DNA of 64,000 nt from Escherichia coli. GTDB taxonomy: Bacteria > Pseudomonadota > Gammaproteobacteria > Enterobacterales > Enterobacteriaceae. Of the stretch, positions 15,867 to 55,263 are shown piece after piece (within the stretch, counting starts at the first letter, position 1; every line of letters begins with the position of its first letter). The notes under the pieces were generated by a model. It worked only from the letters and a program-made list of their open reading frames with translations. It did not search any database and was not told the origin of the DNA. The DNA is taken from assembly GCF_022846255.1 (NCBI RefSeq), contig NZ_AP025682.1; one strand, given 5' to 3'. The position numbers and the translations under genes were made by a program.

Positions 15867-16469
15867 CTATAAAACAGCGTGACGCTGTCGTCCTCTGGCT
15901 CTATCCCAGATGCCGTAAAAACGCCCTGCATTGCTGGCGGTATACCAGACAGTATGACGAATATTGCGATGTCCAAGATAATCCTGGATAAGTCGCGTAT
16001 CTATTCCCATATTCGCCAAAGCAAAACCACACGAATGGCGTAACATGTGCGGATGAATCTCCAGTGACAACCCGGCATTACCACCGGAAGTCGAGATAAT
16101 ATGGTAAAACTGTTGCCGAGAAAGTGGATTCCCCTTACGTGATAAAAATACCCACTCGCTCTCAGCATGCGGATAAGAAGTACGGATACTCAACCAGTTT
16201 TTTAAAGCCTGAATTTCTTTGTTCAATAGCGGGTGCGTTGTTGAAAAGCCTTTTTTTAATCGATGGATATATATACACTTTGCCTTAAGATCAATATCCG
16301 AAATCCTCAATCGGCAAATTTCACTCGCCCGGAAACCATGAATAAAACAAAGTAATGTCAGACAATAATTACGTGCAGCATGAGGCCCGGTATTTGCTGC
16401 TTTAAGGAGTGATTCGATTTCACTATGGGTCAGGAAGTTCCTTTTTTTGTTATCAGCCTTATTCTTCAT
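15867..16469 (-). CDS. fimB: Tyrosine recombinase FimB, 200 aa
   Basis: MKNKADNKKRNFLTHSEIESLLKAAN...; paralogue of FimE with the same catalytic motifs. Confidence 0.95.
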   Translation of the reverse strand: MKNKADNKKRNFLTHSEIESLLKAANTGPHAARNYCLTLLCFIHGFRASEICRLRISDIDLKAKCIYIHRLKKGFSTTHPLLNKEIQALKNWLSIRTSYPHAESEWVFLSRKGNPLSRQQFYHIISTSGGNAGLSLEIHPHMLRHSCGFALANMGIDTRLIQDYLGHRNIRHTVWYTASNAGRFYGIWDRARGRQRHAVL

Positions 16470-17494
16470 CGTTTTCCCTTATAATTACAGACGCGCACTA
16501 GCTGTGCTGGGTTAGCAATAATCCAACATTTTAATCCTGATTATGTTTATAAAAGCGAACGTTTGCTTAATAACTAACGTAAGTGGACCAGTTCTTCTGA
16601 GTGAACTTAAATGGAGTAGCGATAGTTACTTATAATAACTTTGCCATACAAACGCCATGCTCTTGCATGCTATGTATCTTTATATATTTATCAATCTGAT
16701 ACGAATCGAATAATAACCCTCATCATTAATGCAACTAATCTTATCTATATATCATGTGATATGTTCTGTAACAAGTAAAATCAACATAAAAAATTCAGCA
16801 AAATTTAATATTTGTTCAACTAGCCGTCTCACATATGACATTATTAGTCAACTGCATTTGCCACAAAATGGCTATTTCATGGAACACAGTAATTTCTTAG
16901 TGGCTATTATCATGCTAATGCTTAGGTCCCTAGCGATTATTCCTGCCTGGTTCGTCAGCTTACGCCATGAGATTGTTACATTCCTTTTTCAGACTGTGTA
17001 TTTCCTGGAGATATGGGGGAACGCAGGAGACGCTTTTTCATCTACATTCGTTGGTAAATATGGCTTTGGTCACTGCGACTTAAACCTTCCTCAATCACAG
17101 CTATTCGCCGGGCGATACGGCAAACAAACTATCTGAAACATCATCCTGAAAACACCAACATCTACAAGCCTTTCCAGATCGACTTCAGGGATGACCACTT
17201 ACAAGCCAAAAACCAGGAAACATATTTCATGATGAGAATTATGATCAGCCTGATGGCGGGTAAACACTTATTTTCACCACGCTCACTGAGTTAGCTTGCA
17301 AAGCTTCCCTTGTTTAGACCCTAAATAAATCATTTATAAAACAAATAGTTAAAAGAATGCCTTTAGTTTTTGAAGACCACCTCAAGTGTTCGTCTGGCTT
17401 CACATGGCATCTTCCTCTTAGAAAAAGATCGACATATTTTGTGACACGAATTGCAAATCTCGTTTTGTTGTATGGATTGCGTGATTTTTGATCT

Positions 17495-17514
17495 GGTATA
17501 ACAGGTATAAAGGT
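17495..17514. promoter_or_regulatory. Putative NanR operator (GGTATA repeats) in the fimB-nanC intergenic region
   Basis: ggtataacaggtataaaggt contains tandem GGTATA hexamers, the recognised NanR binding motif, about 420 bp upstream of nanC. Confidence 0.5.
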
Positions 17515-17933
17515 GCACCGCGATAGTCAATGAGACAGGGCATCTCGCAATCTATGGCAAACATCACTTCAGTTCTTTCTCATCGGGTGATGAAAACGCA
17601 CTTCAGTCTGAAAGGAATATGAAAATGAGATCAACAGACACTCTATTTTATGACTCTGGGTAAAATGGATTGAGTAAGTGATATAGCTTACAAACATTCA
17701 AATCAATTAAACATCAGAAGAGATTTTATACTCAGGTATTTAATCTGGTTCTCTGTTTATTTAAATAATGTGGAAAGAGAATTTTCACAGGAGACCTTAT
17801 ACAAAAAATATAAAATACAGCTACTCGTTGCCAAAGACACTATAAGCCTGGCAAAAAATATTACACAACATAAATGCTAATTGTTTATGCGGGCTTTGTA
17901 TTGCTTTCTGTATCCTACAAATGAGTGAAATAT

Positions 17934-18669: not shown

Positions 18670-19776
18670 ATGAATAAAACAATAACAGCGCTTGCTATCC
18701 TAATGGCTTCATTTGCCGCAAACGCGTCTGTATTACCGGAAACTCCTGTGCCATTTAAAAGTGGTACCGGAGTAATTGATAACGACACTGTCTACATTGG
18801 TTTAGGTAGCGCTGGTACGGCATGGTACAAGCTGGATACACAGGCCAAAGATAAAAAATGGACAGCGTTAGCTGCATTCCCTGGCGGACCGAGAGATCAA
18901 GCAACCTCTGCATTTATTGATGGCAATCTGTATGTGTTTGGCGGCATTGGCAAAAACAGCGAGGGCTTGACTCAGGTATTTAATGACGTACACAAATACA
19001 ACCCCAAAACCAATAGCTGGGTTAAATTGATGTCGCACGCGCCGATGGGCATGGCGGGCCATGTGACTTTTGTACACAACGGCAAGGCTTATGTTACTGG
19101 CGGTGTTAACCAGAATATCTTCAATGGCTATTTTGAAGATCTCAACGAAGCTGGAAAAGATTCAACCACTATAGATAAAATCAACGCCCACTATTTTGAC
19201 AAAAAAGCAGAAGATTATTTCTTCAATAAGTTTCTGTTGTCTTTTGATCCCTCTACACAGCAATGGAGTTACGCTGGCGAATCTCCCTGGTACGGAACGG
19301 CTGGTGCGGCGGTTGTGAATAAAGGTGATAAAACCTGGCTTATTAATGGCGAAGCCAAACCAGGATTGCGAACGGATGCCGTATTTGAACTTGATTTCAC
19401 CGGTAATAATTTAAAATGGAATAAGCTTGCTCCCGTCGCATCACCAGATGGCGTCGCTGGCGGTTTTGCAGGCATGAGCAATGACTCACTTATATTTGCC
19501 GGAGGGGCCGGATTCAAAGGTTCACGAGAAAATTACCAGAACGGTAAGAACTATGCGCATGAAGGCCTGAAAAAATCATATAGCGCTGATATTCATCTTT
19601 GGCATAACGGGAAATGGGATAAATCAGGCGAATTATCGCAAGGTCGGGCCTACGGAGTATCATTGCCCTGGAATAATAGTTTATTAATTATTGGCGGTGA
19701 AACTGCAGGCGGCAAAGCGGTGACGGATTCAGTTTTGATTTCTGTGAAGGATAATAAAGTCACAGTACAAAACTAA
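18670..19776 (+). CDS. nanM: N-acetylneuraminate mutarotase NanM (Kelch-repeat, 368 aa)
   Basis: Start at MNKTITALAILMASFAANA (the upstream track ORF overlaps nanC and is rejected); Kelch-type repeats (GG...LYVFGG, AYVTGG). Confidence 0.9.
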   Translation: MNKTITALAILMASFAANASVLPETPVPFKSGTGVIDNDTVYIGLGSAGTAWYKLDTQAKDKKWTALAAFPGGPRDQATSAFIDGNLYVFGGIGKNSEGLTQVFNDVHKYNPKTNSWVKLMSHAPMGMAGHVTFVHNGKAYVTGGVNQNIFNGYFEDLNEAGKDSTTIDKINAHYFDKKAEDYFFNKFLLSFDPSTQQWSYAGESPWYGTAGAAVVNKGDKTWLINGEAKPGLRTDAVFELDFTGNNLKWNKLAPVASPDGVAGGFAGMSNDSLIFAGGAGFKGSRENYQNGKNYAHEGLKKSYSADIHLWHNGKWDKSGELSQGRAYGVSLPWNNSLLIIGGETAGGKAVTDSVLISVKDNKVTVQN

Positions 19777-19782
19777 CGCTTC

Positions 19783-19815
19783 AGGGCCCCGGTAAAGGGG
19801 CCCTGCTATCAATTT
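19783..19815 (+). terminator. GC-rich hairpin between nanM and nanS (possible attenuator or terminator)
   Basis: agggcccc-ggtaaa-ggggccct perfect 8-bp stem immediately after the nanM stop. Confidence 0.4.
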
Positions 19816-19840
19816 GTCATTTGTATTACGCGAAAATTAT

Positions 19841-20821
19841 ATGAACGCAATAATATCGCCCGATTATTACTATGTTCTTACCGTTGCTGGTCAGTCTAAT
19901 GCCATGGCGTATGGCGAAGGACTACCATTACCGGACAAGGAAGATGCGCCTCATCCCAGAATTAAACAATTAGCGAGATTTGCGCATACACATCCCGGAG
20001 GCCCGTCATGTCACTTTAACGACATTATTCCACTGACTCACTGCCCACACGATGTTCAGGATATGCAGGGTTATCACCATCCTCTGGCAACGAATCATCA
20101 AACACAGTACGGCACCGTTGGCCAGGCACTGCATATAGCACGGAAATTACTGCCCTTTATTCCTGATAATGCAGGGGTTCTCATCGTTCCGTGTTGCCGT
20201 GGCGGATCGGCTTTTACCGCGGGCAGCGAAGGGACATATTCAGAACGGCACGGAGCCAGCCATGATGCTTGTCGTTGGGGAACGGATACTCCGCTGTACC
20301 AAGATTTAGTCAGCAGAACGCGAGTCGCACTGGCAAAAAATCCGCAGAACAAATTCCTCGGCGTATGCTGGATGCAAGGCGAATTTGACTTAATGACCAG
20401 TGACTACGCGTCACACCCTCAACACTTTAATCATATGGTTGACGCCTTTCGTAGGGATCTAAAACAATACCATTCTCAGCTTAATAAAATTACTGACGCG
20501 CCGTGGTTTTGCGGCGATACCACCTGGTACTGGAAAGAAAATTTCCCTCATGCGTATGAAGCTATTTATGGCAATTATCAAAATAATGTTTTAGCCAATA
20601 TTATTTTCGTCGACTTCCAGCAACAAGGTGCAAGAGGACTGACGAACGCGCCTGATGAAGATCCAGACGATTTAAGCACGGGATATTACGGTTCAGCGTA
20701 CCGGTCACCGGAGAACTGGACGACGGCACTGCGAAGCAGTCATTTCAGCGCGGCAGCCCGTCGGGGGATTATTTCTGACAGGTTTGTAGAAGCAATTTTG
20801 CAGTTTTGGCGCGAAAGGTGA
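19841..20821 (+). CDS. nanS: 9-O-acetyl-N-acetylneuraminate esterase NanS (326 aa from MNAIISPDYYY)
   Basis: SGNH-type esterase motif (VAGQSNAMAYG); matches recalled NanS/YjhS; third gene of nanCMS. Confidence 0.9.
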   Translation: MNAIISPDYYYVLTVAGQSNAMAYGEGLPLPDKEDAPHPRIKQLARFAHTHPGGPSCHFNDIIPLTHCPHDVQDMQGYHHPLATNHQTQYGTVGQALHIARKLLPFIPDNAGVLIVPCCRGGSAFTAGSEGTYSERHGASHDACRWGTDTPLYQDLVSRTRVALAKNPQNKFLGVCWMQGEFDLMTSDYASHPQHFNHMVDAFRRDLKQYHSQLNKITDAPWFCGDTTWYWKENFPHAYEAIYGNYQNNVLANIIFVDFQQQGARGLTNAPDEDPDDLSTGYYGSAYRSPENWTTALRSSHFSAAARRGIISDRFVEAILQFWRER

Positions 20822-20875
20822 GCGTTCATTAATTTGATTTATTCGCATCCATCAACGCTTTTAACTGCTCCGGCG
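20695..20875. repeat. Left copy of a diverged direct repeat (nanS 3' end plus downstream flank) bounding the defence island
   Basis: High similarity to 53494-53661 (shared tail ...ttcattaatttgatttatt[c/t]gcatccatcaacgcttttaactgctccggcg); the right copy lacks ~16 bp. Confidence 0.7.
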
Positions 20876-21660
20876 TGCGGCACTATAATGGTTTTCACAA
20901 CAAGGAGCCATTTTCTTATACCACTTTCAGAGACCATCCGCTTATGCCACCGCCCTCTACGCAACTGTTTGCAGAGCACCTTCCCACCGAGTGGATACAG
21001 CACCTCCTGACGCTTTCTGCTCATGCGACCATTTGTCGTCTTAACCTGAGCGCGGATGGCGAAGCGGGGATTAGCCTGCTGGCCCGCAGCGCTGTCACCC
21101 AGGAGCGCCAGCGCGTGGGGGCCCCCTGGTGGAATGGCTCTTCCGCCAGACCGCACAGACATGGGGCGCGGAACGTTACCTGAAGGATGACTGGCACGGC
21201 CTGCAACTTTTTGCCATTGATGGCGCACAGTTCAGGACACCTATGAACCTGAGTTGCGCGAATATTATGGCTCTGCCAACACATCCACTGAGCGGCAGAG
21301 CGCCTACCCGGTCATGCGTCTGGTGGCGTTAATGAATCTGGGAATCACATTCTGCTGAATGCCATGACCTCGGCCTACCGGCGGAGCGATACAGCGTGAG
21401 GCAACTAAAGCGGCGTCAGAAATCAGCTTTAAGTTCGCATTCCAGTTTATCGTGACAGAAATGATAGTGCAGGGAAATACGGCGTCACCAGGAACCATCC
21501 CGAAACGGCTGGAGCATCTGCGGGGTGCTCTGGAAGCGGTGTTCCCACGACTATCAAGGCCGAGGGCTGTTAAGGTATCAAAAACCCGTTATCCGGTGAA
21601 ACACAGTGCCGCCCCGCTTAAGTGACGGCATTGTGTTTCTGACTGGCCTTAACTTTCCCT
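20876..21660 (+). mobile_element. Degenerate IS4-family transposase remnant (frameshifted and internally deleted)
   Basis: Broken frames encode ...PPPSTQLFAEHLPTEWIQHLLTLSAHATI..., ...WLFRQTAQTWGAERYLKDDWHGLQLFAIDGAQFRTP... and ...PGTIPKRLEHLRGALEAVF..., resembling an IS4-type DDE transposase; no intact ORF. Confidence 0.45.
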
Positions 21661-39429: not shown

Positions 39430-42400
39430 TTATCCAGCGATAATATAACTCCTAAGGTCATTACCCGGGGCAACAGCTCGCGCTCGCGTGTTTGCCAGCA
39501 GTTCAACTTGCTGCGGTACTCGCAGGGAAAAATCAAAGAAGGTATCTTCAATACAGCGCCAGTAGCTAAGCCCCATGTCGAGCAGGACATAATGCTGACT
39601 GCCATCGCTGAAGGTGACTGTCAGTTCTCGTCCATGCTCCGTACTCTGGTTATCCCCCGTTAACCAGCTAATTGCTCCCGGCCACGCTGGCCCCAGATAT
39701 CCTTCTTCAAGTAAAGTGGTCACAACCTGCTGACGATCTTCCTCATTAAGCCACGCGTTATAGAGAGCGTCGTGTTGGCGAGAGTTGTAATCCAATTTTT
39801 TGACGCAAACAGTGAGGCTGGCGCGTTCCGCCATTCCCTGTCCAACCAGCTCGGTTAAGATTTCACCTAACAAACGCGCCGTGAATGGGCTATTAAGATA
39901 ACGATCGCTGTACTCAACATGCGTTATCTCTTTGTGGCGGGTAAATGCCTGCTTCCAGCCAGCGTGCTGTTGCGTGACTAACGACCAGAAACGCGAACCA
40001 AAACCTTCCAGCGGCCCGTCCAGTTGCTCGCAGAGGTTGATGCGCACCGCCCCGGTGGGTAAGGCGGGCAGTAAATCTTCTGCACTTAAGGTCTGACCCG
40101 AGAAGGTTTTTCCGGACGTTCCTTTAAGTGTCACTACTGGTGAGGACGCACTTTGTCCCCATAATTCACCAGGTGCAACGGTAGCGCTGTCGTCTGCGGC
40201 CCACTGTTGGCTTTGCCCTTCGCGAGTCACCTGCGCAAGCCAGCGTCCCTTTCCTTGCATGAGTTGCGCAGTGGCAATGGATTTCACTTGTAAGCGTCCT
40301 CCCGGCATCGCCGCCAACGCGGAAAGCTGATGTCTGGAGCTATCTGTTAAGTTTGCCAACGGCGTGGCCACCAGCAACTCAACATGCCCACCGGAGGAGG
40401 CAAACTGGAGCAACTCTTTAAATAATGGCCATTGGGCAAAATCCCACTGTTCCTGCGGCCCCGCAAGAACCAGCGAGCAGGAGTCATAAATCTCGCTGTT
40501 CAGGCATTGCGCAATACGTAAACTCAGCGGGTTAGTTTCAACCCGGCTACCATCGCCGAAGTACTGATATTCTGGCGCGAGGTTAAGTCGCTGCAACCGT
40601 ACATTGGTAAGCAGGGTTAATGCATGGTGACGATCTAATCTGTTGACATAATGCTGACTGTCGTAGCTGAGCAAGCAGTGGTGACAGAATTTATCGCAAC
40701 TGCAATCGAGCAATTTTCTGGCGTAATTAAAGACATCAGCCCAATGGTCGATCAATTGCACTGCATAACCTGCACCACCCGCATTATTGTCGTAAATGAA
40801 GATGGAATATCCGGTATAGCCATTGATATCGCGCGCTTGCTGCGTCGTCACGCCCAGCTCAGTATTTTCGATACCCAATTTATGCGCTAACCCTTCACGC
40901 AAAGCGACCGCAAGGGATCGCGCGGCAACCTCATCACGGATCAACAGGCCATTATCATCATTGAGTTGCAGCTCAACCATATCTGTACGACTGCTATACC
41001 CCAACCAAAGATCTTTATGCACATGACCGTGGCACAATTTATTGCTCCCCTGACGATCGTTACTGCCCCCTCGCAACAGGTAATGCGTATTTTCCCTCTC
41101 TGGGTTCTTAAGATTTTCAGGGGTACGCTGGGGTTGATTTTGAGATTCTGCCCGACCACATGAGAGGCAAATTGCGTAGCCGTGCCCAAATTCCCCTTCA
41201 CTGAAGTGGAACAATTCCCCACTATGGCTAAAACGGTAACGTCCTAACCCAGCATCGGGTAAAGAAACCCACACCGAAGACGGTACAAGAACACGTGGAT
41301 CTTTCCAGGGAAGTTGTGCAGGCATGGATACATCATTATGCGCCTGATAACGGATATCTGTCGCAAAACCAACAGGCTGTAAATAACGCTTCACATCAAG
41401 TTGCTGTATATCCGCTTTGCAGTGACTACATTCGACAGGACGGGTAGTACTGGTTGCCCCCGCACCACATTTACGACAATGCCAGAACCACGGAATATGA
41501 TGATCGCCTGACAGCTCCTGCCCGCTGGCAAGTACCTTGCCAAGCATAATGCCCGAGGAACGATATACTTTTCCGCCCAATACCACATCTGCACCTGGAG
41601 CATACTCGCGTAATGCTGTAGGCAAATCACGGCTGGGCAATTTTTCAATACGACGAGAAAAGCTTTCTCCCCCTTCATTAGGGTCAGCCTGAGTAGCTTT
41701 TATTGCGCGACGTTTTTCCAGCTCATCTGCCGTCAGATAATTGAAATTGACGACGCCAACCGGGAAACCATGCCCCGGCAGGAACGCTTCACTAATGAGT
41801 TTAGAAAACAGATATGCACCGCGATAATCACGAAGCTGATAAGCGATGGCTTTACCTGCTGGCGTTTCTTCCCACGCGCTGTTATCCGCCTTCAACGCTT
41901 CGATATTTTCCAACAGTATCGCAAGTTGGCTTCTCCAGCGGATATCAACCTGCTGCATCATTGCTTGTGTGCGGGTCAAGAGCTGGGTTGCCGTCAATGA
42001 CATCAGGACGGTTCCCTGAGTAAGGCGTTTAAGTTTATCCGCCAGCTGATCGGCCTGGTTATTTAACCAATGGAGAAAACGAAGACACTGGCTCTCATCA
42101 CCTTCAAAGAACCATTTGCAACTCAGTTTTGTCGCATCAGGAACTTCAGCTCGTAAAAACAGACCTAAAACCAGGGCATTAACATGTCGTTGAACAATAC
42201 TGCTGCTCCCAAAACGAACCCGTGGCGCACTGGCAGTAGTGTTGAACGCCCAGAGGGGGGCTTTGAATACCTCCATTCCATGCGCCGTGTTTTTACATAA
42301 CGTAATGGCAGCAGATGCACTCTCTCCACGTCGACCCGCGCGGCCTGCACGCTGCAAATAATTTGCCGGAGCTGGAGGAACGTTGTTCATTGCCACCAAA

Positions 42401-51684: not shown

Positions 51685-52788
51685 ATGAAATTATCTATCG
51701 ACATTTCAGAACTTATTCAATTAGGGAAGAAAATGTTACCAGAAGGAGTCGATTTTTTTCTGGATGAATCCCCTATTGACTTTGATCCTATAGATATTGA
51801 GTTATCCACGGGTAAAGAAGTTAGTATCGAAGATCTTGACCCTGGTAGCGGGCTTATCTCTTATCATGGCCGCCAGGTTCTTTTATATATTAGGGACCAT
51901 TCAGGGCGTTATGATGCGGCTATCATCGATGGCGAAAAAGGAAAACGTTTTCATATTGCCTGGTGCAGAACTCTTGATGAAATGCGCCATAAAAATCGAT
52001 TTGAAAGGTATCATGCAACTAACCGCATAGATGGTTTATTCGAAATTGATGATGGTTCAGGTCGGAGCCAGGATGTTGATTTACGGGTATGTATGAATTG
52101 TCTGGAACGACTTAATTACAAAGGAAGTATTGATAAACAAAGGAAAAGAGAGATTTTTAAATCATTCTCATTAAATGAGTTTTTTTCAGATTATAGTACC
52201 TGTTTTCGTCATATGCCTAAGGGTATCTATGACAAAACAAATAGTGGGTATGTCGAAAACTGGAAAGATATATCAAAATCAATACGAGAAAAGGCCAAGT
52301 ATACTTGTAATGATTGTGGTGTGAATTTATCAACCGCCAAAAACTTGTGCCATGTCCATCATAAAAATGGCATCAAATATGATAATCACCATGAAAACCT
52401 TCTTGTTCTGTGTAAGGATTGCCATCGTAAACAGCCCCTCCATGAAGGTATATTCGTTACCCAAGCTGAGATGGCTATCATTCAACGTTTACGTTCCCAA
52501 CAAGGGTTATTAAAAGCCGAATCCTGGAATGAAATATATGACCTGACTGATCCATCAGTACATGGTGATATTAATATGATGCAACATAAAGGCTTTCAAC
52601 CTCCTGTTCCTGGGTTAGATCTTCAAAACTCAGAACATGAAATTATTGCAACCGTAGAAGCAGCATGGCCAGGCCTTAAAATTGCAGTTAACCTTACTCC
52701 CGCCGAAGTCGAAGGATGGAGAATATATACCGTGGGTGAGCTGGTTAAAGAAATACAAACAGGAGCCTTTACGTCAGCAACGTTGTAA
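51685..52788 (+). CDS. zorE: Zorya type II ZorE (HNH endonuclease), 367 aa
   Basis: HNH signature CNDCG...HVHHKNG...NLLVLCKDCH; third gene directly after zorA/zorB. Confidence 0.75.
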   Translation: MKLSIDISELIQLGKKMLPEGVDFFLDESPIDFDPIDIELSTGKEVSIEDLDPGSGLISYHGRQVLLYIRDHSGRYDAAIIDGEKGKRFHIAWCRTLDEMRHKNRFERYHATNRIDGLFEIDDGSGRSQDVDLRVCMNCLERLNYKGSIDKQRKREIFKSFSLNEFFSDYSTCFRHMPKGIYDKTNSGYVENWKDISKSIREKAKYTCNDCGVNLSTAKNLCHVHHKNGIKYDNHHENLLVLCKDCHRKQPLHEGIFVTQAEMAIIQRLRSQQGLLKAESWNEIYDLTDPSVHGDINMMQHKGFQPPVPGLDLQNSEHEIIATVEAAWPGLKIAVNLTPAEVEGWRIYTVGELVKEIQTGAFTSATL

Positions 52789-52799
52789 ATTCCGAAACT

Positions 52800-52835
52800 C
52801 CGTGAAAGTTAAGGCTTTCACGGAAGATAAATATA
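52800..52835 (+). terminator. Terminator-like hairpin after zorE
   Basis: ccgtgaaag-ttaagg-ctttcacgg 9-bp stem 12 nt after the zorE stop, followed by an AT-rich tract. Confidence 0.45.
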
Positions 52836-52998
52836 ATTTTCCTGATTTGTGACTCAAATTACAAAAGTCGTTTATGGCATAACTTGTCTGTTTTTTTTGG
52901 TGTAATAGGTATAAAGGCATATGCTATGGTTAGCCTTATATTTAAAACTTTCCTCATACGGGTGAAGGTTAAAGATTGGTAGATAGGTTACAGTCACA

Positions 52999-53607
52999 AT
53001 GAATAAAGCAATAACGGTGCTTGCTATAATGATGGCTTCATTTTCCGTAAATGCGTATGTATTACCGGAAACGCCTGTGCCATTTAAAAGTGGTACCGGA
53101 GCAATTGATAACAACACTGTCTACATTGGTTTAGGTAGCGCAGGTACGGCATGGTACAAGCTGGAGAAACAGACCAAAGATAAAAAATGGACAGCGTTAG
53201 CTGCATTTCCTGGTGGACCGAGAGATCAAGCAACTTCTGCATTTATTGATGGCAATCTGTATGTGTTTGACGGCATTGGCAAAAACAGTGAGGGCTTGAC
53301 TCAGGTATTTAATGACGTTCACAAATACAACCTCAAAACCAATAGCTGGGTTAAATTGATGTCGCACGCGCCGATGGGCATGGCGGGTCATGTGACATTT
53401 GTACACAACGGCAAGGCTTATGTTACTGGCGGTGTTAACCAGAATATCTTCAATGGCTATTTTGAAGATCTTAACGAAGCTGGAAAAGATTCAACATACC
53501 GAACGCCGGAGAACTGGACGACGACACCACGAAGCAGTCATTTCAGTCGGGGGATGATTGTAGACAAATTTGTTGACGCTATTTTGCGGTTTTGGCGTGA
53601 AGGGTGA
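52999..53607 (+). pseudogene. Chimeric nanM'-'nanS remnant (first ~165 codons of a nanM homologue fused to the last ~37 codons of a nanS homologue)
   Basis: 52999-53493 aligns at roughly nine in ten bases (by eye) with nanM 18670-19166; 53494-53607 aligns with the nanS 3' end 20695-20821 minus a short deletion; a GGTATA-type motif lies ~95 bp upstream. Confidence 0.75.
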
Positions 53608-53661
53608 GCATTCATTAATTTGATTTATTTGCATCCATCAACGCTTTTAACTGCTCCGGCG
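53494..53661. repeat. Right copy of the diverged direct repeat bounding the island
   Basis: Matches 20695-20875 (see left copy); similarity ends at ...ctgctccggcg in both copies. Confidence 0.7.
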
Positions 53662-54193
53662 AAAACGGTGGTTTGCGTCGGTGCAACATCGCATGGCAAT
53701 TAGGGCACACAGGAAGCAAATCATTAACTGGATCCAGCTGGTAATTCTCTTTAATGGCTGAAAGCGGCACCAGGTGATGCACATGGATAAAGCCTTCAGC
53801 GATATCACCATAGATCTTCACCAGATCAACGCCGCATACGTTGCACTGGCATCCATGATGTTCGACCGCTTTATCTCGGGCCTTTTTATCGCGTTCATAG
53901 CGGTTTACTGTCACCTTTATCGCCGCACTTTCAACGTATGTCTCCTGCGACGGCAACTCATCCGGGAACAGAACGTCGGCTATGGGAGCCGCAGCGGCTT
54001 TATCCAGATGAATATGAAATCCCTGCTCTATGAGTAGCTTGAGACATTTAGATTTTATTCCGCCGGTGAAATCCGCAGGGGTAAATTGCGTCCCCGTCAT
54101 CAATGTCGCTGCGATGCCAGCAATCGCCTTCGAGGGGTAACGTCGGCCATGAATACAACCGCGCAGGCTGGAACTGATGAGTTTCTCCCGCAT
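53615..54193 (-). CDS. HNH endonuclease-domain protein (192-aa ORF; probably the 3' part of a frameshifted longer gene together with the overlapping ORF 54048-54254)
   Basis: HNH motif HGCQCNVCG...HVHHLVPLS...LLPVCPNCH; an overlapping upstream ORF in another frame (MNKLPDHLPRRYIIEAIHLWDAGE...) suggests a frameshift; its last ~15 codons are also present in the left repeat copy after nanS. Confidence 0.6.
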   Translation of the reverse strand: MREKLISSSLRGCIHGRRYPSKAIAGIAATLMTGTQFTPADFTGGIKSKCLKLLIEQGFHIHLDKAAAAPIADVLFPDELPSQETYVESAAIKVTVNRYERDKKARDKAVEHHGCQCNVCGVDLVKIYGDIAEGFIHVHHLVPLSAIKENYQLDPVNDLLPVCPNCHAMLHRRKPPFSPEQLKALMDANKSN

Positions 54194-54333: not shown

Positions 54334-55263
54334 TTGAACAGCAGAAAATTTGCGAGCATGATCGCAATTATTTCACTGCCAGGGATATCAATGGCTTCCA
54401 GTAAATCGCTACAGCAGGCAATTGCCAATATAAAAATCTGGCACAAGGGTGAACAGCGCGCGCCGCATAAGCCATTGTTATTGCTATATATATTAGCGGG
54501 ATACCTGAATGGACATCCGCGCCTTTTCGATTATGGCTCGGAAATCTACGAACCTCTGCACAGTTTACTGGAACGTTTTGGGCCACAGCGTTCACAGTAC
54601 CGACCTGATATGCCGTTCTGGCGATTACAAGGCGACGGATTCTGGCAATTACACAATGCCGAGCTTTGCTCAACAGCAGGGAGCAGCCGACAACCACCAG
54701 TGAAGGAACTGACTGAATACCACGTTGCAGGCGGTTTCGATGAACAGCACTACGCCCTGGTAACTGGCAATAAAAAACTCATCAATACTCTGGCGCAACA
54801 GATACTCGAAGCGCACTTCACCGAGAGTATTCAGGAAGAAATTGCTGACGAGCTGGGTTTTGATCTCCAGCAAATCCGTAAACAGCGCGACCCGTTATTT
54901 CGCAAAAATGTATTACGCGCTTATAACTACCAGTGCGCGATATGTGGCTTTAATATGCGCCACGACGACACCACCGTCGCGCTGGAAGCGGCGCATATAA
55001 AATGGAAACAGCACGGCGGTCCTTGTGAAATTCCTAATGGCCTGGCGCTTTGCGCAATTCACCATAAAGCCTTTGATAAAGGATCGATTGGCCTGGATGA
55101 AAATATGCGGGTACTGGTATCAGATGCGGTAAACGGCGGAGGGATCGTTGAGAAACTATTCTGGGATTTTGACGGGAAAACTATTGCTTTGCCGCAGGTA
55201 CGTAAAAATTACCCTTATGAGGGATTTGTGGAGTGGCATCGAAAAGAGGTTTTTAGGGGGTGA
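54334..55263 (+). CDS. HNH nuclease-domain protein with an uncharacterised N-terminal domain (309-aa ORF; start uncertain)
   Basis: C-terminal HNH-like motif YQCAICGF...EAAHIKWKQHGG...ALCAIHHKAFDKG; N-terminal ~180 aa has no motif I can name. Confidence 0.55.
   Translation: MNSRKFASMIAIISLPGISMASSKSLQQAIANIKIWHKGEQRAPHKPLLLLYILAGYLNGHPRLFDYGSEIYEPLHSLLERFGPQRSQYRPDMPFWRLQGDGFWQLHNAELCSTAGSSRQPPVKELTEYHVAGGFDEQHYALVTGNKKLINTLAQQILEAHFTESIQEEIADELGFDLQQIRKQRDPLFRKNVLRAYNYQCAICGFNMRHDDTTVALEAAHIKWKQHGGPCEIPNGLALCAIHHKAFDKGSIGLDENMRVLVSDAVNGGGIVEKLFWDFDGKTIALPQVRKNYPYEGFVEWHRKEVFRG

Follow-up and report, generated by a model that had tools for sequence, protein, structure and literature searches.

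The window analysed here, 64 kb of Escherichia coli chromosome, contains in a defence island a second copy of a nan promoter, and with a probability of roughly 85% we interpret the motif at 52899-52921 as its decaying NanR operator. The promoter would be a relic module, made of a CRP-like site and a (GGTATA)3-type operator, which once drove a nanC-less nanM-nanS operon. The site is a further instance of a well-known type of NanR operator and an ordinary evolutionary relic. The value of the result lies mainly in annotation, as it accounts for an unannotated intergenic stretch and a pseudogene in ~10% of complete E. coli genomes; the current understanding of NanR and of Zorya is unchanged by it.

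The operator and its promoter module

The window runs from fimB (15867-16469, minus strand) through nanC, nanM (18670-19776) and nanS (19814-20821) into the defence island. The elements relevant to the promoter are the following.

17495-17517, plus strand: operator of the resident nanC gene, GGTATAACAGGTATAAAGGTGCA, identical to that of K-12 and used as the reference site
51685-52788, plus strand: zorE, last gene of the type II Zorya cassette (open reading frame, named from the RefSeq annotation of strain CFSAN061771 and from other contexts)
52799-52824, plus strand: hairpin just past the zorE stop codon, with an 11-bp stem and no U-tract (-16.3 kcal/mol, z = -3.4)
52848-52863, plus strand: CRP-like site TGTGActcaaaTTACA (TGTGA-N6-TTACA), which aligns with TGTGA-N6 in the promoter of the resident nanC
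52899-52921, plus strand: degenerate NanR-type operator GGTGTA-ATA-GGTATA-AA-GGCATA, with one perfect repeat and two repeats carrying one mismatch each

The first-pass annotation of this DNA had pointed out, within 52860-52998, a NanR-box-like motif resembling the operator upstream of nanC, and this was borne out: GGTGTAATAGGTATAAAGGC (52899-52918, plus strand) differs from the nanC site GGTATAACAGGTATAAAGGT (17495-17514) at three of 20 positions. The two are the sole matches with at most three mismatches in the 64-kb window, and none was found in 100 shuffles. The distance of about 95 bp given to the start of the nanM remnant (nanM') was roughly right, the 20-mer starting 100 bp and ending 81 bp before the ATG at 52999. 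What had been missed is a third repeat, GGCATA at 52916-52921. The complete 23-mer thus consists of three direct hexamers separated by 3 nt and then by 2 nt, which is the spacing of the K-12 nanA, nanX and nanC operators. Its only perfect repeat is the central GGTATA, fewer than the two or more consensus GGTATA repeats needed for nanomolar binding. The 23-mer lies 78 bp upstream of the nanM' ATG and downstream of the CRP-like site, i.e. in the position of a sialic-acid gene promoter.

The motif scan proposed in the first pass was run by counting mismatches over the three repeat hexamers, in place of a position weight matrix, because over their first 20 nt the three E. coli operators do not differ and a matrix built from them says nothing on tolerated variation. 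In the 248 kb of sequence compared, every site with three or fewer mismatches precedes a nan gene or a nan-gene remnant. A separate sequence, GGAATATCCGGTATA at 40804-40818, differs from GGTATANNNGGTATA at one position. It lacks a third repeat, lies outside any nan context and did not appear when the repeat hexamers of the 23-mer were counted with up to four mismatches allowed; its similarity to GGTATANNNGGTATA is probably due to chance.

The resemblance to a nan promoter is not limited to the operator. The 53 bp upstream of the motif, including the CRP-like site, align with the resident nanC promoter (52846-52917 vs. 17438-17514, local alignment score 48; shuffle mean 20, maximum 34). The CRP-like site also aligns with the promoters of K-12 nanA and nanX, of a plasmid-borne nanA and of nanM in strain SCPM-O-B-8794, and the layout of CRP-like site plus operator is common to all six nan promoters compared (K-12 nanA, nanX and nanC, the plasmid nanA, SCPM-O-B-8794 nanM and the window copy). 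From this alignment CRP would be expected to bind at 52848-52863, where the centre of the site is 43.5 bp upstream of the operator. The T-run between them (52891-52898) is T8 in the window and T7 in the closest relatives CFSAN061771, EFF60 and THO-008, which shifts the spacing by 1 bp. A sigma-70 scan of the plus strand called no promoter here and none at the genuine nanC promoter, and a terminator scan of the plus strand called nothing at either place; since the genuine nanC promoter was missed too, such scans are uninformative for CRP-dependent promoters. Rfam, searched with permissive filters, returned no RNA family.

The nanC gene is absent between the operator and nanM'. We considered and rejected the idea that a deletion remnant of nanC was left there: in the ungapped alignment of 52944-52998 with the 3' end of the resident nanC (score 17, shuffle maximum 16) all of the signal comes from the last ~20 nt, which correspond to the nanC stop codon and the nanC-nanM spacer. 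When the last 22 nt were excluded, 52919-52976 had no similarity to nanC 3' ends (score 7, shuffle mean 7.9).

Intact counterparts and the remnant genes

The first-pass annotation had also suggested that in the donor locus nanM stood under its own NanR-controlled promoter. This suggestion is supported by four E. coli genomes, TW14425, GF4-3, S43 and MB06022, which were found by searching the corresponding unit of Escherichia sp. E1V33 against E. coli and in which an intact nanM follows the zorE-hairpin-promoter unit; the respective chromosome record has no other nanM match. The operator of these four strains, orthologous to the window site, is the perfect (GGTATA)3 form GGTATAACAGGTATAAAGGTATA. 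In TW14425 the order is uxuR-uxuB-uxuA, defence block, Zorya II, promoter, nanM and a partial nanS, with neither fim nor nanC between them. Read from its gene order, the TW14425 locus is the nanC-less arrangement with the defence block inserted upstream.

The whole gntP-fim-nanC segment is absent between uxuA and nanM in TW14425 (NZ_CP127265.1, 1.425-1.462 Mb), GF4-3, S43 and MB06022, and in TW14425 its place is taken by a ~30 kb block of defence genes (helicase, methyltransferase, STY4851-family and Zorya II). In the window strain the normal fim-nanCMS locus and the defence block occur together, the latter with a nanM'-nanS' scar.

When species-representative genomes were scanned with the NanM' peptide, four loci were returned (E1V33, E. 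whittamii, SCPM-O-B-8794 and E69). E1V33 has zorE, the hairpin, the promoter (92% identity), an intact nanM (368 aa), a nanS remnant and a restriction gene, and E. coli strain E69 has the usual nanC-nanM arrangement. The comparison of nan loci, another of the checks proposed earlier, was informative in the remaining two: in E. whittamii and SCPM-O-B-8794 nanM lies without nanC behind a CRP-like site and an operator, the order being uxuA (minus strand), the CRP-like site, GGTATAAAAGGTATA(T/C)AGGCACA, 40 bp and nanM. Neither fim nor nanC is present at this locus, and in SCPM-O-B-8794 nanS follows nanM. Taken as a whole, the analysis shows a natural nanC-less form of the nanCMS operon, in which nanM is directly behind a consensus NanR operator.

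Downstream of the window operator, homology to the resident locus restarts at 52979 with the nanC stop codon and the nanC-nanM spacer, and continues into the remnant genes.

52999-53495, plus strand: nanM' remnant (5' 497 bp, encoding NanM residues 1-166 with the signal peptide), at 94% identity to resident nanM 18670-19166
53496-53661, plus strand: nanS' remnant (last ~110 bp of nanS and ~54 bp of downstream flank), in frame with nanM'
52999-53607, plus strand: chimeric 202-aa open reading frame, NanM(1-166) fused in frame to the C-terminal 36 aa of NanS; a pseudogene in RefSeq

The identity between nanM' and the resident nanM is 86% in the first 100 bp and rises to 96-98% beyond. At 53490-53661 the match switches to the 3' end and flank of nanS (81.5% identity to resident 20692-20875), and the tail of the reading frame, YRTPENWTT...FWREG, matches the NanS C-terminus. 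As the alignments place the junction, in the window copy one internal deletion removed the 3' portion of nanM along with most of nanS; the O157/O55-type copies have a separate, independent deletion, which starts at nanM codon 6. The nanM' remnant shares 94% identity with the resident nanM and 86% with the island nanM of E1V33, though the promoter is 92% identical to that of E1V33. Such mosaic identity suggests that the two nanM copies, which are 33 kb apart, have undergone recombination or gene conversion with each other.

For the neighbouring genes we used the RefSeq annotation of CFSAN061771, whose locus is 99.8% identical to the window. The gene order is DEAH-box helicase, STY4851/ECs_5259-family protein, the type II Zorya genes zorA2-zorB2-zorE and the nanM pseudogene, beyond which are an HNH endonuclease gene on the opposite strand and a gene for a phosphorothioate-dependent restriction endonuclease. 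The upstream neighbour of the relic is zorE in every genome examined, and zorE or a remnant of it adjoins the unit in 13 of the 13 copies whose context was examined. The hairpin is kept in all copies, and the alignments put it on the Zorya side of the junction; the consensus terminator scan did not call it at 52799-52824. Its variants in E1V33 and TW14425 retain most of the stem pairing. In strain 1008S13 an IS5 element is inserted into the TTAA loop of the hairpin, and the homology break at 52814 in this strain, which was considered as the native boundary of the cassette, is this insertion instead.

In copies of the window and TW14425 types the HNH gene (53615-54193, minus strand) lies between nanS' and the SBD-HNH restriction gene (54334-55263, plus strand). 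E1V33 and the O157-type copies lack it. The 3' end of the HNH gene extends into the homology to the nanS downstream region; the equivalent spot after the resident nanS likewise has an open reading frame (20839-21228, minus strand).

Among 5426 complete E. coli genomes, 567 (~10%) have the 176-bp interval between zorE and nanM'; for 92 of the copies the identity is 95-99%, and for 470, which are of the O157/O55 type, it is 90-95%. A shorter nanM' of 249 bp is present in the three O157/O55-type copies that were examined. A search of the plasmid collection found no donor, its sole match being an 83%-identical plasmid nan locus, and a literature search on Zorya together with nanM returned no papers mentioning both. 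The nanM'-nanS' scar can serve as a marker for tracing the movement of the Zorya-containing defence block between Escherichia lineages.

Operator drift and alternative readings

The window operator differs from GGTATAACAGGTATAAAGGTATA by A4G (repeat 1), C8T (spacer) and T20C (repeat 3). As read from the sequence, A4G changes the -10-like TATAAC of repeat 1 to TGTAAT; by analogy with the K-12 promoters, whose CRP geometry is of class I, the repeat-1 hexamer would serve as the -10 element. Between one and four operator substitutions are present in all seven decayed copies examined, which have the following operators.

Window, CFSAN061771 and EFF60: GGTGTAATAGGTATAAAGGCATA
THO-008: GGTGTGATAGGTATAAAGGCATA
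EC1515: GGTGTAATAGGTATAAAGGTATA
O55:H7 and HH194M: GGTGTAACAGGTATAAAAGCATA

Between the window and GF4-3 there are differences at 3 of 23 operator positions and at 19 of 187 flank positions (Fisher p = 0.72), which indicates neutral drift of the operator with no sign of purifying selection.

Three observations count against the reading of the module as a relic. First, in E1V33 an intact nanM follows an operator with the same degenerate sequence as that of the window; in at least one lineage the substitutions therefore came before the decay of the gene, and NanR may tolerate them. Secondly, the intact nanA-nanT operon of plasmid pSTEC2018_166-c has the first-repeat variant GGTGTAAT, so GGTGTA may remain a working repeat. 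Thirdly, the spacing between CRP-like site and operator is 4 bp below the 47.5 bp of the K-12 nanC promoter in the intact copies as well. The plasmid (NZ_CP075634.1, IncK2/Z, conjugative) carries in its segment 2113-7116 a second nan locus with nanA, a sialate transporter gene, a KdgM-family porin gene and nanM (83% identical); the NanR-type operator GGTGTAATAGGTATAAAGGTATA is placed 46 bp before nanA, and none was found ahead of the porin and nanM genes. Together the variants form a series of natural substrates for studying the number of imperfect repeats that NanR tolerates, from the perfect operator through GGTGTA...GGTATA and GGTGTA...GGCATA to GGTGTA...AGCATA.

The course of events that we favour would begin in nanC-less, fim-less Escherichia lineages with the promoter directly before nanM. 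In E. coli of the TW14425 type a defence block ending in type II Zorya would have come to lie immediately upstream of this promoter, and the block with the attached promoter-nanM-nanS segment would then have been carried into E. coli strains which already had nanCMS. There the redundant nanM-nanS pair would have been trimmed by internal deletions, leaving in the window the in-frame fusion of NanM(1-166) with the C-terminal 36 aa of NanS, while the operator drifted neutrally and acquired A4G, C8T and T20C. In its perfect form the operator was presumably NanR-repressed and the promoter CRP-activated, like those of nanA and nanC; what is said here of these two mapped promoters and of CRP dependence draws in part on PMC8012715 and PMC3658417. 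The window copy probably has little or no regulatory role, and any binding of NanR to it would be weakened.

It could be argued that the remnant is still an active NanR/CRP-controlled promoter that has been co-opted, driving the fusion reading frame and reading into neighbouring defence genes, either antisense into the HNH gene 53615-54193 (window) or in the sense direction into the SBD-HNH restriction gene (O157/O55-type copies). We consider this very unlikely. Both the CRP-like site and the central repeat have been preserved throughout the copies examined, save for the CRP-like half-site of O55:H7, which is TGTGG, but the operator as a whole drifts at the rate of its flanks and varies among lineages, with no sign of selection for NanR control. 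The fusion is in frame and has kept the signal peptide, yet RefSeq labels it a pseudogene and the deletions differ from lineage to lineage. In O55:H7 and EC1515 the restriction gene is on the same strand ~68 bp after the 249-bp nanM', and in O55:H7 no terminator-like site was called between the two, whereas in the window the HNH gene on the opposite strand separates the promoter from the restriction gene. That the Zorya-borne CRP/NanR module still fires and puts neighbouring defence genes under sialic-acid and catabolite control is, in our estimate, very improbable. If true, it would link phage defence to the gut mucus niche; the targets would be the SBD-HNH restriction gene directly downstream in the ~470 O157/O55-type genomes and, in the window, antisense transcription of the HNH gene.

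Just as doubtful is the suggestion of the first-pass annotation that the site could titrate NanR, i.e. act as a decoy which measurably and partly derepresses nanATEK, nanCMS and nanXY. Its three repeats have the correct 3-nt and 2-nt spacing with no more than one mismatch each, and altered repeat spacing is known to abolish NanR binding (Horne et al. 2021, PMC8012715). In the same study two or three repeats bound NanR cooperatively at ~20-25 nM, and with such cooperativity imperfect neighbouring repeats could still fill (PMC8012715). Two perfect repeats were, however, needed for the KD of 25 nM, and for a single repeat the binding was about as poor as for a poly-AT control (Horne et al. 2021, PMC8012715); the window operator has one perfect repeat left. 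It is moreover a single chromosomal copy against three consensus operators, and the operator carries no conservation signal.

A chance origin of the motif, as a GGTATA-like sequence without relation to nan regulation, has nothing but the AT-richness of the intergenic region in its favour and is refuted by the shuffles (zero random matches expected in the window), by the homology of its flanks to nan promoters and by the orthologous perfect operators before intact nanM genes. We thus return to the relic operator of a nanC-less nanM-nanS operon as the best explanation; neither titration of NanR nor co-option of the promoter for defence genes finds support in the sequence data.

Comparison with known NanR-controlled promoters

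The NanR operators of the K-12 nanATEK-yhcH and nanXY (yjhBC) operons have reportedly been described by Kalivoda et al. in 2003 and 2013. For the comparison we extracted the nanA, nanX and nanC operators from MG1655, where nanA and nanX have GGTATAACAGGTATAAAGGTATA and nanC has GGTATAACAGGTATAAAGGTGCA. The nanA and nanX operators have the same hexamer spacing (3 nt, 2 nt) as the window copy and share 20 of 23 bases with it, and they are identical at 23 of 23 positions to the orthologues in TW14425, GF4-3, S43 and MB06022. As in the window, an upstream CRP-like TGTGA-N6 site is present in both K-12 promoters. The distance from this site to the operator is 43.5 bp in the window, whereas it is 47.5 bp in the K-12 nanX promoter and the resident nanC promoter. 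A further difference is the GATC directly upstream of the K-12 operators, which the window copy does not have: GATCT (Dam site) directly precedes all three K-12 resident-type operators, and GATC is missing from the island promoter also where the operator is perfect.

The nanA operator of pSTEC2018_166-c shares the exact GGTGTAATAGGTATAAAGG variant with the window, but its third repeat is perfect, it precedes intact nanA-nanT and its flanks are otherwise unlike those of the window.

The resident nanC promoter (17440-17517) is homologous to the island module, and both are upstream of nanM and nanS. Relative to (GGTATA)3 each of the two operators has two hexamer mismatches; in the nanC operator both fall in repeat 3, which leaves two perfect repeats, whereas the window operator is left with one. 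The nanC operator is separated from nanM by ~1.15 kb (5' UTR and nanC), while the island operator lies 78 bp from the nanM ATG, without nanC. In this respect the loci of E. whittamii and SCPM-O-B-8794 resemble the island copy, having nanM directly behind a CRP-like site and a three-repeat operator with a third repeat of the GGCA type, as in the window. Their operator is 40 bp from the ATG, the island copy having ~37 extra bp, and their nanM is 83-89% identical; the flank strings which these loci share with the window align better with it than does the nanC promoter (score 65 vs. 48).
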